DNA of 64,000 bases from Octopus vulgaris. Its lineage: Eukaryota. The notes beneath the pieces were generated by a model. It was not told the origin of the DNA, did no database searches, and worked only from the letters and a program-made list of their open reading frames with translations. Positions within the stretch are counted from its first letter, which is position 1, and each line of letters starts with the position of its first letter. Where the stretch lies: contig OX597837.1 of the NCBI GenBank assembly GCA_951406725.2, forward strand, positions 26,536,001 through 26,600,000, given 5' to 3'. The translations under genes and the position numbers were made by a program. Positions 7,790 through 39,990 of the stretch are shown one piece after another.

Positions 7790-8181
7790 TACTCTTACAT
7801 TTTTACTTGCTTCAGTAATGTGACAGCGGCCATGCTGCAGCGTCACCTTTTACTCGAACAAATCAACCCCAGGATTTCTTTTTTAAAGTCTGGTACTTAT
7901 TCTATCGGTCTCTTTTACCGAACTGATAAGTTACGGGGATGTAAACACACCAACACAGGTCAAGCGGTGATGGTGGGGGTCAAACACAGGCACAAAAACA
8001 CATACATACATACATACATACATACATACATACATACATATTTATACGACGGGCTTCCTTCAGTTTCCATCTACCAAATCCACTCATAGGGCTTTATTCG
8101 GCTCGAGGCTATAGTAGAAGACACCTGCCTAAGGTACCACGCAGTGGGATTGAACCACAACCATGTGGTTGGGGAGCAAGC
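7790..8181 (-). mobile_element. SINE family A, split by an insertion; its head continues at 39935-39970
   Basis: Ends ccatgtggttggggagcaagc; the missing tacttaccacacagcc..ctacgcct follows gatcaagc at 39943. Confidence 0.8.
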
Positions 8182-9019
8182 GGATCTTTTCTTTTTGAAA
8201 GCCAGATTTTCCTAGTTAACTAAACAATTTGAAACTTCGTATACTGGTAGAATGTGTCAAAAGAAAATATAATTGTAAACCAAAATGAAAACGGAATTGT
8301 AATTTCTAAGTTTAACGTTGTTTAAAAATTCAAATTTTAACCAATGATATTCTTTCTTTCGGCCTCATATTATTTACTGCTTCTCAAAATATTGTTACTG
8401 TGACGTAAACAGCTATTTTGTGACGTAGTTAACGTAAACATGTAAATAGCTAACTAAAATGTAAACATCTCCGCTTATCATAAACTTCGTGGAGTATATA
8501 TAAAATTTGTGTAGATCCTAAATAGCTACACACACACATGTATACAAACATATGCATATATATATATATATATATATATATATATACACCTATACACACA
8601 TATTCTAATGCATATGCATATATGTGTATATATTTATAATGTGTGTGTATTATAGATGCATACATTATATATATATATATATAAAAGATGTTTACATACA
8701 ATATATATATGTTATATACATCTACATGTATATGTATGTATGAATATATAAGTACCACAGAATTTGGATCAAACTGTTTTGATCCATACACACACACACA
8801 CACACACACACACACACCAACACTACCATCCATGAGACATCCTAACATAATCAATGCTACTACTACTATCATCATCATTATCATCATCATCCACTGCTGC
8901 CACCACCACCACCACCACCACCACCTCTACAAAAACACCAACACTATAATTGCTGCCATCATACACATCCACTGTCACCACCACCACCACCACTGCCATG
9001 ATAACCACATCTACCACAG

Positions 9020-9337
9020 CTGTTTGCTTACTGCTTACCCACTCACAAAATAGCTATCTACGTCACATTAACACTATGCAGCTAATAATTTCAAATGAAA
9101 ACAGAAAATATGATTGGTTAAGGATAGAATAAGTACTGGGCTTACAAAAAGAATAAGTCCCGGGGTCGAGTTGCTCGATTAAAGGCGATGCTCCAGCATG
9201 GCCGCGGTCAAGAGTAACATTAAAAGTAAAATATGTTTTATATGCCACATTAGGGTTAGGGTCAGTGTCCGAAGGTTGAAAGTGTTTAGTTACAAAAAAT
9301 ATATTTCTCGATCTGCCGTTGAAAGGGTAAAGATCCC
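9020..9337. mobile_element. Older, diverged end of a related GGATC-TIR family, interrupted by a SINE tail
   Basis: cacaaaatagcta.ctacgtcaca, gtgtttagttac and ctgccgttgaaagggtaaagatcc resemble the TIR family; SINE A tail at 9123-9210. Confidence 0.55.
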
Positions 9338-10549
9338 TTATATTATTTATTTAAACCCTTTACAAACTAGAAGGCCATCGGTTGAATAAAACAACATTGT
9401 TCCTCAACAGAACAATAAGGCTCTATAGTTAGGGGGAAATTTACCCATTCAGTTTCAAAATTCAGGTGGAGCCAAAAGAGGTCTCTACACATACATACGT
9501 ATACACACACACACATACATACATACATATATCCAGACAAACTGCCGTTTATATATAGAGATATATATATATATATATACCGCTTGGATCGCTTTCAATC
9601 CCACGATTCGCTCCAAAATTTACAGGGACATGTAGAAATAGGTGACGAAGCTCGTGGGCTACCTTAGAAATCCCTATCTTAAAAGGTGTGGTTGCTAGGG
9701 GCCATCTTCCTCACTCACGCTATTTCCTCCAGTACCCTCTAACTCCCCTCCATATATAACTTTGATAATTCCACTACCGTTATTTAAAGTATCTGTCACT
9801 TTCGCTATTTCCTCTCTTTTTCACTCACTCTGTTTCTTACCTTCCCATTACATCGACGTTCTTTTACGTATCTGTCTGTCACCAACAACACACGAGCATG
9901 AGAACAAATATTATGAATCAGATATTCTTGCGTTCATTTATATGTATGTGTGTGTGTGTGTGTTCTATATATAAATATGTATATATAATGTATGTGTGTG
10001 TGTGTGTGTGTTCTATATATAAATGTGTATATATAATGTATGTGTGTGTGTGTGTGTGTGTTCTATATATAAATATGTATATATAATGTATGTGTGCGTG
10101 TGTGTGTTCTATATATACATATGTATATATAATGTATGTGTGTGTCTGTTCTATATATAAATATGTATATACAATGTATATATACAAAGTGTATATATCT
10201 GTATTTATGTATATTAAACTTTTTCATACTTTTTCATAGTTATATATATTTTTAAACAAATTATATTTTCAATTTAATTTAAATTTATCAATTTTATATT
10301 TTCTATATTATATTTTTTTTAATGTTTTTGTTTTTTCACTGTTTGATTTGCCTAAAAATTCCATTTTTCACTTTTATGAATATACCCAGAGTGCTCTAAT
10401 CGAATATGAACTGTCTTCCCATTGGCGGACGTTTTTTTTTTTTTTTTTGAAACAAACATATTGCCTCTTTCGTTTTAAAACAATAAAACAATACTACCTT
10501 AATACATTGGTCCAACAAACAAAACATCACCCACTCTCATTCGTTTATG

Positions 10550-36425: not shown

Positions 36426-38344
36426 ATATATATATATATATATATATATATATATATGTATGCATGTATGTATGTATGTATGTATGTATGTATGTATGTA
36501 TGTATGTATGTATGTATGCATGTATGTGTATATGTATATACTTACATATATATGTATATACATATGCATATATGGGTACAGGACGTCACAGAAGGTAAAC
36601 AACAGGAAATACGAAATACGAAAATATGGAATACGAACTTTTTTGCGAACAGCGAAAGAAACAACATTATCGATGATGCCCGAAATTGCGTTTGACTCCT
36701 CTTGCTGATAACTGATGAAGAATTTGTGACCTTGTGTGTTTTCAGTTCGCCTGTGCATTTAGTATGTGTTCGTTTGTTTATTTACAATACGTTTATTTTT
36801 AATTATATATATATAGATATGTCATATTTCCCGTTTGTTGTCTTTTTATTTAATCCTGAAGATATTATTTATGTAACGCACGAACTCATTAATCTTTTAC
36901 CTATATATATATGTGTGTATGTGTGTGTGTATGTGTGCGTGTGTGTGTGTGAGTGTGCGCGCCTGTGTCTGTGTGTGTAGTTCAAATTTACAGAAAACAA
37001 ACGACGAAGACAGGTGAAAGAACAACAAGCAGAGTTTGAAGGTTTTTTAGTTATAGAAATCGACCCCAGGACTTACTCTTTGGAACCCTAGCACTTATTC
37101 TATCGGTTTCTTTTTCTAAAACGCTAAGCTACGGGGACGTGTATATATATAACACACACACACATATATATATATATATATATATATATATATATATATA
37201 TATATATATATATATATATATATATATATATATATATAGGCGTAGGAGTGACTGTGTGACAAGAAGTTTGCTGCCTGGTCACTTGTCAAATAGATTTGGA
37301 CGATGGAAACTGAAAAAAGCCCGTCGTATATACGTGTTTGTGGGCCGGAGGGAGCTAGCTTCGTGCTTGTCCCAGACAACCGCTTGTTGACTTCCTTTCC
37401 ATCCCCGCAACTTAGAAGTTCGACGAAATTAACCGATAGAATATGTCGAATGACTGAGACAAGTAAATGTTTTTTTAGATATATCGTAGTAATATCTAAT
37501 GTAGTTGTGGTTTACGACCAGTCAGGACGTTACCATTGGTTTCACACTTTTTATACTCTTAGCAATATAGACGTCTCCCACTGCTAAGAACGCGAAGGCG
37601 CGAAAGCAATGGTGACTCCCTGACAGGCCATACCAGCCACATAGTTTCGGGTTCATTCACACTGCGTGGCACCTTAGAACCTAGGGTTGGATTCAAAATT
37701 CTACCAGGACACCTGATGAAGGCTGGAGAGTAAATCAGCCGAAATTTTGTGGTAGCAACAAACAAGATGAGGACAAATATCCGTCCAATGTAAAAAATGT
37801 AAATATTGTACAGAATTCCTCATCTCTAAAATATAGAACAATTTATGATTGTTTCAAAAATTCCATGTTGACTTAATCTTGCATTGTGTTTTTAAACGAC
37901 TCCACAATTAATGATGTAGTCATATCCGTTGTACAGATACCCCGTTCATAGAAATGATCCCTCGCAACTCTCTACAAAAAATAATATGCTGAAGTGTTTG
38001 TCTACCGCTTAAATATAGGACATTAATCAATGTTTATAGTGGACGGCACAGCGGTCACGTTTATAAACATGATTGAAGATAAGTCAAAATGAATTTGTAG
38101 AAATAATTGTAAACTATGAAACAAAAATAATAACGCAAACTCCACTTTTCAGTGCTTATTACTTCTGTAACCTCACAGAGGAAACATGACTCCTCCTTCA
38201 CTCCTCTCCACCCTTCATTTATGGTTTGAGAATAATTCTATAATTGTTGTAAACTGGAATGGAACTTACTCTCTTTCTGCTCACATCCATTCACCATTTA
38301 ATGCTACTTGCTTTGCATCTTTTAGAGAGATAGATTAGATATAA

Positions 38345-38741
38345 CTAGCAGTGTCGCCCGGCGTTGCTCGGGTTTGTAAGGGAAATAACTATATAAGCAT
38401 TTTTAGAGAGTTATAGCCAAAAAATAGCCAAAAAATGCATTAAAAATGGAAAAAAATTATGGTAAATTTTTTTTAAATCGTTGACTCATCGTAGACATTT
38501 TTAGAGAGTTACTTCCCTTATATAATAGCAACAAAAATGCATTAAAATGGAAAAAAATGATGGTAAATTTTTTTTTAAATCGTAGACTCATCGTAGACGC
38601 GCGCTAATACCCAGAAGGGCTCGATATGAATCACGACAATAAGATACCCGGTTTTGGTTAAACTGCACCGCAAAATGTGGGAGTAGTTAGGAATCTAAAT
38701 CGTAGGAGACAGACACACAACCTCTCTTTTATATATAAAGA
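38345..38741 (-). mobile_element. Non-autonomous Helitron
   Basis: TC start, CTAG end, internal tandem subrepeat. Confidence 0.75.
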
Positions 38742-39990
38742 TAAACTCAAAGAGCAACTAGAAAGTGAAAGTAGTATCTAACTTAGGATGTCTCATAGAT
38801 AGTGGTGGCAATAGTGTTGGAGGTGGTAGATGTGGTTATCATGGCAGTGGTGGTGTAGTGGTGACAGTGGATGTGTATGATGGCAGCAATTATAGTGTTG
38901 GTGTTTTTGTAGAGGTGGTGGTGGTGGTGGCGGCGGCAGTGGATGATAATGATAATGATGATGATAGTAGTAGTAGCATTGATTATGTTAGGATATCTCA
39001 TGGATGGTAGTGTTGAAGACATTGCAGAGTGTAGTGGTGGTGAAATTGGTGATTTTGAATATGATGCTGGTATTGATCTTGGGGTTGTGGTTGCAGAAGA
39101 TGGTTGTGGTGGTGGCATTGGAGGTTGTAGTAATGGTTGTAGTGGTGGTTGTGAAGATGATTCTGATATTGATAGTCTTTGCATTGAGGTGGTGGCAGAG
39201 TCAGAGTAAATAATGAGAGCCCAGGTAACACAAGATTCTTAAATTTCGGAGATCATAAGATAGAGAGCAAGAAGTTAAAAGTTCCAATACTGGCCCAATA
39301 CCTACACCCCAGATTCTTCAACTATTTTATAAGAAAGGGGTTAATGGCAGGATAGGGATTCAGCTTTAAAATAAATTGTATAACAAAAAATACATAAATA
39401 AATTACTGCTCCAACGATGTAATTTTAGTATGTGTGTATGTATGTATGTGTATGTATGTGTGTGTGTGTAAGCAATGCAAACAATGGAAAATAATTTAAA
39501 CACTCATTTTCTGATGTCTAAGGATGGATATTTATGCGTATGAATCTTTTTCTTTTTATATTCTTTCAAATATAATTCTAGGGAACTGAAAAAGCTGTGT
39601 ACGATGCCAAGCGAATTTAGCTATTTACGATGAACGGATGTTTACGTTACAAACGAATCTCTAGGTCTGTTTACATGTTTACGTTAACTACGTCACAAAA
39701 TAGCTGTTTACGTCACAGTAACAATATTTTGAGAGGCAGTAAATAATATGAGGTCGAAAGAAAGAATACCATTGGTTAAAATTCGAATTATTAAACAACG
39801 TTAAACTTAGAAATTACAATTCCGTTTTCATTTTGGTTTACAATTATATTTTCTTTTGACACATTCTACCAGTATACGAAGTTTCAAATTGTTTAGTTAA
39901 CTAGGAAAATCTGGCCTTCAAACTGAAAAGATCCGATCAAGCTACTTACCACACAGCCATACCTACGCCTATATATATATATATCTATCC

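Follow-up and report, generated by a model that had tools for sequence, protein, structure and literature searches.

The natural cargo of animal cut-and-paste transposons is thought to be limited to a few kb, and multicopy Pack-TIRs are described as rare and small (PMC6431247 and PMC8277862, partial text). The Pack-TIRs of animals and Ssk-FB4 (Tan et al. 2021, PMC8277862, partial text) are non-autonomous, contain captured DNA and show separate duplications, as does the octopus family described here. However, that survey set an upper limit of 5 kb on interiors and reports four multicopy cases (1.4%), its example having three copies, while the octopus interiors are about 20 kb or more and occur at a minimum of 79 loci. 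Pack-MULEs and the Muta1 derivatives of Aedes aegypti also resemble the octopus family, in their long terminal inverted repeats (TIRs), their 8- or 9-bp duplications and their many non-autonomous families with nothing but the TIRs in common, but Pack-MULEs are mostly 1–2 kb and below 7 kb in length (PMC5225508 and PMC6431247, partial text). The same excerpts describe a tandem subterminal repeat array in Muta1. A literature search returned no description of this family, and the available text of the Octopus vulgaris repeat paper (PMC13282606) is silent on such a composite. The octopus family is a variant of the known Pack-TIR/macrotransposon kind, unusual in its size and copy number.

In the window (the whole 64-kb stretch of O. 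vulgaris DNA that was analysed, to which all positions refer), self-comparison gave as the longest inverted pair two arms of 269 nt at 8181–8449 and 39667–39935, with 96.7–97% identity. The TIR proper is 268 bp long, reading inward from 8182 (8182–8449, plus strand) and from 39934 (39667–39934, minus strand); it starts with GGATCTTTTC at both ends of the element and has 8 mismatches within the first 265 positions. The flanking 8-mers, gagcaagc on the left (8174–8181, plus strand) and gatcaagc on the right (39935–39942, plus strand), are identical at seven of eight positions. The element interrupts a SINE, of which the left part (7801–8181, plus strand) stops at 8181 and the tail (39943–39969, plus strand) restarts in register at 39943, as judged against five intact SINEs of the window; the overlap of the two parts is confined to the target-site duplication. 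Small MITEs at 2390–2856 and at 59101 have perfect 8-bp duplications. A preliminary description of this DNA had proposed TIRs of about 265 bp with about 8 mismatches and a common terminus, an 8-bp duplication that splits a SINE, and perfect 8-bp duplications at the two MITEs, and these features are all confirmed. Independent insertion of the two ends and targeting of this SINE position are both refuted; none of 58 other ends lies at that position. The argument of the preliminary description from the TIR mismatches is unsound, because six of the eight left-right differences are the majority state in 14 copies; being mostly inherited, they do not serve as a clock.

A first look with the left TIR gave 1318 candidates genome-wide, and the search for paired copies found 13 other end pairs, enclosing 8.5–39 kb. 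A target-site duplication with at most one mismatch is present in 11 of the 14 pairs, versus 2 of 182 control cross-pairings. Both 9-bp duplications of giant copies consist of low-complexity sequence. Parts of the same cargo were found at 79 or more loci on 19 contigs, and capture-recapture gave 55–145 loci, a rough figure drawn from ranked lists, not random samples. The cargo is collinear on many contigs, and its mariner matches keep both flanks in 26 of 29 cases. At least one of 18 other copies covers 94% of the window element, and at least three cover 80%. Orthologous cargo differs by about 1–2% between copies (3–5% in a few pieces), whereas its repeats are 7–24% away from their free copies: SINE cargo has medians of 10–24%, mariner cargo 10–12% and the RTE 6.7%, the last two measured against only one or two free copies. 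This contrast indicates that already old DNA was moved as a block, and so supports the earlier proposal that roughly 20 kb had been mobilised together. The window element is one member of a multicopy family and not a single capture. A donor locus was not found among the best 40 of 367 candidates, all 91–100% identical and with no outlier in the identity comparison; the closest copy, on the same contig as the window, has no left end within 9 kb. Paired TIRs with duplications of fixed length at unrelated sites are the hallmarks of a non-autonomous TIR DNA transposon. We therefore read the window element as one copy of a giant non-autonomous TIR family, which probably moved as a block with the help of a trans-acting transposase, most likely of MULE type, and give this reading a probability of about 0.85.

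The left arm (8182–9121, plus strand) is what remains of a 1.06–1.1-kb MITE, of which free copies also exist, with an 8-bp duplication of their own. It ends in a remnant of the MITE's inner TIR (9043–9121, minus strand), about 75% like the outer TIR; the window copy has lost the terminal part of this inner TIR together with about 2 kb of cargo. A 70-bp minisatellite and (TATT)155 follow at 10669–12052, and the part from 10822 to 12052 is covered by none of the 18 other copies. Cargo common to copies comprises a decayed mariner (12800–15318, plus strand) with a nested Tc1-like element (12949–14243), a second, internally deleted mariner (15721–16292, plus strand), and a decayed LINE within a SINE (27465–30220, plus strand), which we take to be of RTE type from its frame content. 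The region 30221–38743 is also shared and contains SINE fragments, low-copy DNA and non-autonomous repeats that are presumably Helitron-like, given their CTAG hairpin ends. The repeat at 36043–36410 looks, from its free copies only 0.5–3% away, like a late private insertion. Apart from the TIR, the right arm (38783–39934, minus strand) and the left arm have a 193-bp block in common.

The preliminary description had seen no transposase inside, and a Pfam search of the interior frames agrees: only decayed Tc1/mariner, RTE and LINE frames gave matches, and none of 85 other interior frames matched (85 of 119 frames covered). A set of 96 frames taken from other copies and the adjoining DNA gave, above the Pfam cut-off, matches to transposon proteins only. 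Rfam gave 41 rows, all driven by microsatellites and below the gathering score.

About a third of the element, overlooked in the preliminary description, is a young LINE pair at an insertion hotspot. The hotspot and its left flank lie at 16300–16495. Copy 1 (16491–21735, minus strand) is an L1/Tx1-like LINE with an ORF1 and an EN-RT-zf ORF2 with a frame break; copy 2 (21736–26989, minus strand) follows head to tail, is 99.6% identical to copy 1, and also has a frame break in ORF2. Across 30 copies of the site, 17 hold a LINE, 12 are empty and one has a stub, and filled and empty copies are scattered over a star-like tree (only 4 of 27 branches starred). The insertions show at least seven tail types and varied junctions, fall within a range of about 80 bp, and include several LINE subfamilies and head-to-tail arrays at the same site. 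The 10.5-kb pair of the window is likely a late addition. Among the closest LINE 3′ ends, 29 of 30 are at the hotspot or behind the head of another LINE (27 by script, 2 by eye), and 7 of 40 close ends lie away from any known family locus. The LINE has the Tx1-type layout, an ORF1 with an EN-RT-zf-RVT ORF2 of the L1 group, and shows the target preference of Tx1-type LINEs; the named proteins that it matches are hypothetical ones from fish, with about 29% identity, and the LINE at locus L092 has an unbroken ORF2 of 1131 aa. The element would be a landing site for a target-preferring L1/Tx1-like clade, which would build head-to-tail arrays there. The arrays may have grown partly by unequal exchange, as the nearly identical spacers of one array suggest. 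We lean somewhat against, but offer tentatively, a wider picture: a transposase-less vehicle of 20–40 kb, amplified to about 100 copies in spite of its size, would have co-evolved with a dedicated LINE clade at one site, now a patchwork of old insertion duplications, where the clade would keep intact copies in arrays and ride along when the vehicle jumps, and the same clade would drive one of the most abundant SINEs of the genome through a shared 3′ tail. In an alignment of tails, two of four SINEs gave no match and one a marginal one (54 against 51). A sequence close to the LINE site, not including the site itself, had an unremarkable predicted fold (z 0.73).

These insertions bear on the possibility that a small MITE was inflated in place by nested insertions and that nothing large moved. 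The LINE pair, the repeat at 36043–36410 and the minisatellite block are indeed late parts of the interior, and many other copies also contain private insertions, but together this process accounts for only about one third of the length of the window copy. The remainder consists of old insertions that recur in an unchanged order at unrelated sites, each site with its own duplication, and with 1–2% divergence, so that inflation in place is refuted for about 20 kb of cargo and is very improbable as a general account. Segmental duplication by recombination or replication errors, with two MITE ends included by chance, would explain why 3 of the 14 end pairs have no duplication and why some large copies have no left arm nearby: two large LINE-array copies have none within the stretches examined. 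Such cases indicate that recombination between copies does occur. As the source of the family it is only marginally more credible than inflation, because on either side the terminal GG marks the limit of homology between copies, and perfect 8- or 9-bp duplications accompany 10 of the 13 other pairs.

An assembly artefact, either a misjoin of two ends or collapsed and re-expanded repeats, is equally hard to credit. One family member does seem to be split at a LINE array between an unplaced contig and contig C27, the two having a duplication in common. A misjoin would not restore the SINE in register with an 8-bp duplication, however, and the copies are 1–2% apart with private indels. The right-hand cargo and arm are also present in public runs of nine studies, one of which may be the source of the assembly (16 of 24 rows with at least half of the words). 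At the left junction (8181/8182), one 83-bp read contig matches 8126–8208 exactly and has 27 letters on the TIR side, where 31 are needed; left-junction read contigs from four runs are mostly SINE and TIR copies. Three raw-read runs gave no read over the right junction, which counts neither for nor against the join. Block movement of a TIR family remains the preferred reading.

Which superfamily supplied the transposase is less clear. MULEs are defined by long TIRs and 8–11-bp duplications (PMC6446971 and PMC5225508, partial text), and Muta1 derivatives have common TIRs around unlike interiors (PMC5225508, partial text). The octopus elements likewise have long TIRs, 8-bp and 9-bp duplications within one clan, and the same TIRs around unlike interiors. 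The same block movement could instead be that of a Merlin (IS1595-type) derivative, the membership proposed in the preliminary description. Merlins are defined by GG ends, TIRs of 24–462 bp and 8–9-bp duplications (PMC8101967, partial text), all of which are seen in the octopus element, and Merlin transposases are plentiful in the genome (150 scored matches, 476 candidates). These structural marks are equally those of MULEs (PMC6446971 and PMC5225508, partial text). The DDE_Tnp_IS1595 gene that characterises the superfamily is absent from the interior, and the four Merlin loci with visible ends begin differently, with GGCAC(A/T)GTCATGCC. No such gene was found with GGATCTTTTC ends in 30 short and 44 ten-kb loci, taken from the 476 candidates, and no MULE transposase (PF10551) in 30 short and 20 ten-kb loci; the 64 ten-kb loci of both kinds had no transposase between such ends, and none of the 30 short MULE loci had a GGATCTTTTC-type end nearby. 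The MULE subgroup profiles gave one weak match (PF20700) and none (PF21056). A decayed Merlin (L121), with a GGATCTTTTC-type TIR 1.3 kb away, was considered as a partner and rejected: this end is that of another, distinct family of 1.1-kb MITEs and a neighbour by chance, as it is present at 0 of 20 related Merlin loci. Merlin membership is therefore unproven and somewhat unlikely; MULE fits slightly better, at about even odds, and any other superfamily is improbable. The ends of hAT and P elements usually start with CA or TA.

The left arm has been seen as a mobile element of its own, the right arm has not. The 30 left ends examined comprise 6 free MITEs flanked by a duplication, 4 arms with the inner TIR followed by cargo, 17 with the deletion of the window copy and 3 of other kinds; all of 29 other right ends continue inward, with no free MITE (0/29) within the flank examined. 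The existence of the left arm as a free 1.1-kb MITE suggests a composite (macrotransposon) origin of the giant element. In such a scheme, the outer end of the MITE would have paired with a related end 20–30 kb away, bypassing the inner end, and the intervening DNA would have become mobile. Later loss of the competing inner end in most copies would have favoured movement of the whole block, by cut-and-paste with a transposase supplied in trans. Spread would have been by excision and gap repair, and the many internal deletions would stem from repair that was broken off. The order is not polarised, and the MITE could derive from the giant element. At a published octopus rate, 1–2% pairwise divergence would be about 1.5–3 million years. 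Of the Pack-type or macrotransposon route envisaged earlier, the captured DNA moved as a block and the mobile left arm stand, but a host-gene fragment was not found in the cargo (0 of the 85 interior frames; short exons and UTRs escape such a search). The cargo is repeat debris, unlike that of the Pack-TIRs in the available text of PMC8277862, so the label 'Pack' fits only loosely.

Cargo of about 20 kb or more that was moved dozens of times would mean that some eukaryotic TIR transposase has, or until recently had, a large natural cargo range; finding this enzyme would be of interest to vector builders. It also provides a direct route to dispersed segmental duplication, estimated at about 1–2.5 Mb from 79 loci of 10–30 kb. 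Repeat maskers would report these elements as separate old fragments of SINE, mariner and RTE and misdate them, biasing age landscapes of the octopus genome. Because filled and empty copies of the LINE hotspot coexist, target choice could readily be studied there.

In the Ac macrotransposons of maize and the foldback-flanked Ising TE of Drosophila, neighbouring ends similarly move 10–28 kb or more (PMC9910405 and PMC6431247, partial text), and Ac shares the 8-bp duplication with the octopus element (PMC9910405, partial text). Those cases come from laboratory lines or stocks, whereas in the octopus the composite occurs naturally, as a dispersed family that shows internal deletions and has lost an inner end. 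The closest parallels to its LINE are Tx1L in Tx1D of Xenopus and Tx1-Mar in Mariner-N4_AMi of crocodilians, where a LINE likewise prefers a non-autonomous DNA transposon (PMC4494074 and PMC6719617, partial text). Their hosts, in the same excerpts, are small and of high copy number, while in the octopus the host is a giant composite, present in about 100 copies. Compared with both, the octopus LINE, L1/Tx1-like by its ORF layout, appears to have a wider spread of insertion points, about 80 bp, with several subfamilies and arrays at one site.

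The inverted arms of the element (8181–8449 and 39667–39935) aligned over 269 nt at 96.7% identity when the window was compared with itself, and both TIRs start with GGATCTTTTC, as stated in the preliminary description. The flanks are gagcaagc on the left and gatcaagc on the right, and comparison with five intact SINE copies bore out the splitting of the host SINE, which breaks off at 8181 and restarts in register at 39943, with an 8 bp duplication. The small MITEs at 2390 and 59101 do each show perfect 8 bp duplications. None of the 58 other family ends checked occupies the same SINE position, which argues against habitual targeting of that position.

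Searches of the genome (2.8 Gb, 227 contigs) gave 1318 first-look candidates for the left TIR and 1470 for the right arm (38783–39934), 40 of each being scored. Both ends were present in 13 of 18 other fetched loci, spaced 8.5 to 39.1 kb apart, with perfect 8 bp duplications in eight pairs, perfect 9 bp duplications (both low-complexity) in two and none in three. Including the window, 11 of 14 end pairs have a duplication with at most one mismatch, compared to 2 of 182 cross-pairings. Interiors are collinear with the window element (90–99% identity, counting gaps), each copy having private deletions and insertions, and of the window element 94% has a counterpart in one or more of the 18 other copies and 80% in three or more. 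Four ranked match lists, when pooled, gave a lower bound of at least 79 separate family loci on 19 contigs. The right-hand part was also found in public sequencing runs from nine studies; the occurrence of the family is therefore not confined to a single assembly. The element is real, and belongs to a multi-copy family.

Family loci were commoner on small contigs, in counts drawn from ranked lists (C30, nine versus 0.6 expected; C27, eight versus 1.1; C31, four versus 0.3; the C24 count includes the query). The left end at locus L017 (unplaced contig C58) and the right end at L034 (C27) have a perfect 8 bp duplication in common, and are likely to be one element split by the assembly at its LINE array. 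A duplication matching across contigs, between L005 and L043, is possibly due to chance. At L087–L088 (C6:99.08–99.09 Mb), the left end and outer flank of one copy are present twice, 7.9 kb apart.

Counting substitutions only, orthologous cargo pieces are about 1–2% apart between copies (two pieces, 3–5%), and the arms differ equally. Free SINEs elsewhere show median differences of 10–24% from the cargo SINEs (34–75 copies each), free mariners a median of 10–12% from the cargo mariners (1–2 copies only), and free RTE 6.7% from the cargo RTE (one copy only). The cargo mariner retained both cargo flanks in 26 of its 29 best matches. The cargo predates the spread of the family, as proposed previously, but the TIR mismatches used there as a clock are unsuitable, since six of the eight are the majority state over 14 copies. 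At the octopus rate of 0.0036 per million years used in PMC13282606, a pairwise difference of 1–2% would correspond to about 1.5–3 million years. Without its late additions (a LINE pair, a repeat at 36043–36410 and a minisatellite block) the window copy is about 20 kb, and the collinearity and similarity of copies support movement of this old DNA as a block. The search for host-gene fragments found none, with no Pfam match for any of 85 interior frames, and no donor locus was found among the best 40 of 367 candidates. The region 10669–12092 holds a GC-rich 70 bp minisatellite beside (TATT)155, framed by TTGGC repeats, and none of the 18 other copies covers its longer part. A Helitron-type Pif1 helicase fragment lies near the left arm in L061 (1719–2267) and other copies, and is absent from the window copy.

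The left arm (8182–9121) represents a 1.06–1.1 kb MITE; the right end belonging to this MITE resembles the outer TIR at about 75%. Among 30 left ends, six were free MITEs with a duplication, four kept the inner end followed by cargo, 17 (including the window) had lost the inner end through one common deletion, and three had other configurations. Right and left arms have the TIR and a 193 bp block in common, and at 29 other loci no right arm formed a closed free MITE. The most economical interpretation is a composite (macrotransposon) origin, proceeding from MITE to giant element: an outer MITE end would pair with a distant related end, making the DNA between them mobile, and the competing inner end would be lost later. 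In the C9 copy (L066), degenerate telomere-like TTAGGG repeats open the cargo immediately after the inner TIR, 1106–1230 bases from the left end; similar repeats also occur within small MITEs.

No transposase of the element itself was found in interior frames of the window copy or other copies. Assignment to Merlin, as suggested previously, fits structurally (PMC8101967), and so does MULE (PMC6446971, PMC5225508). Merlins are numerous in the genome, at 476 candidates, but those with visible ends (four loci) begin differently, with GGCAC(A/T)GTCATGCC. An end-profile scan of 64 ten-kb Merlin or MULE transposase loci gave 25 matches and no end pair enclosing a transposase, nor was any transposase tied to GGATCTTTTC ends in the MULE loci examined. 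Between these two candidate types we lean towards a MULE-type transposase, because families of the clan have common TIRs around unlike interiors and mixed 8 and 9 bp duplications; a sister MITE family has 8 bp duplications in nine and a 9 bp duplication in one of 30 loci.

The sole Merlin adjoining a GGATCTTTTC end was rejected as a chance neighbour. A separate Merlin family (L175, L177, L178 and L184; about 1.6–2.2 kb) combines long open frames and target-site duplications with ends that read GGCAC(A/T)GTCATGCC. The GGATCTTTTC end is common to several other MITE families with unrelated interiors of 0.3–1.3 kb (L272–L301; window 2390–2856, 5486–5920 and 59101–59385), and occurs about once per 35 kb in unselected loci. 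A truncated MITE end at 6174 adjoins a fragment (6113–6541) of the integrase zinc-binding region of an LTR-type element.

Absent from the preliminary description are two head-to-tail LINE copies (16491–26989), 99.6% alike and of the L1 group, which contain ORF1 and an ORF2 of EN-RT-zf type. In a copy on C27, ORF2 is uninterrupted (1131 aa) and 99% like that of the window. In 30 family copies chosen by the neighbouring mariner, this site held a LINE in 17, was empty in 12 and carried a stub in one. The LINEs are all in one orientation, with junctions 38–115 bases from a fixed anchor and at least seven tail types (counted by eye), the window's type occurring in five copies at five different junctions. 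Filled and empty copies are intermingled on a poorly resolved tree. The 30 closest LINE 3′ ends lay behind another LINE head (21), at the site (eight; six assigned by script and two by eye) or elsewhere (one), and for 33 of the 40 closest a known family locus lay no more than 50 kb away. The site's flank had 156 genomic candidates, and of the 39 listed, 35 fall at the same loci as other cargo matches. This internal site is a LINE insertion hotspot. Arrays reach at least seven units, and part of their growth may be by unequal exchange, since spacers are nearly identical in one array and different in another. The 3′ tail of a highly abundant SINE (32567–32814, 39991–40237) matches the last 30–45 LINE bases (16491–16535), scoring 59 against a best shuffle of 40 in one copy and 54 against 51 in another. 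The LINE clade is probably a partner of this SINE.

No description of the family was found in the literature searched, including a 2026 octopus repeat paper (PMC13282606); Repbase, Dfam and the Zenodo library of that paper may contain pieces. Its ingredients (Pack-TIRs, macrotransposons and LINEs targeting DNA transposons) are already known. Ac macrotransposons offer a parallel for the proposed pairing of an outer end with a distant related end (PMC9910405), and LINEs target DNA transposons in a similar way in Tx1L in Tx1D and Tx1-Mar in Mariner-N4 (PMC4494074, PMC6719617), Tx1 membership of the present LINE being putative. In scale, however, the family is atypical: a survey of Pack-TIRs in animals limited interiors to 5 kb and gave four multicopy cases (PMC8277862), and Pack-MULEs are described as remaining under 7 kb (PMC6431247).
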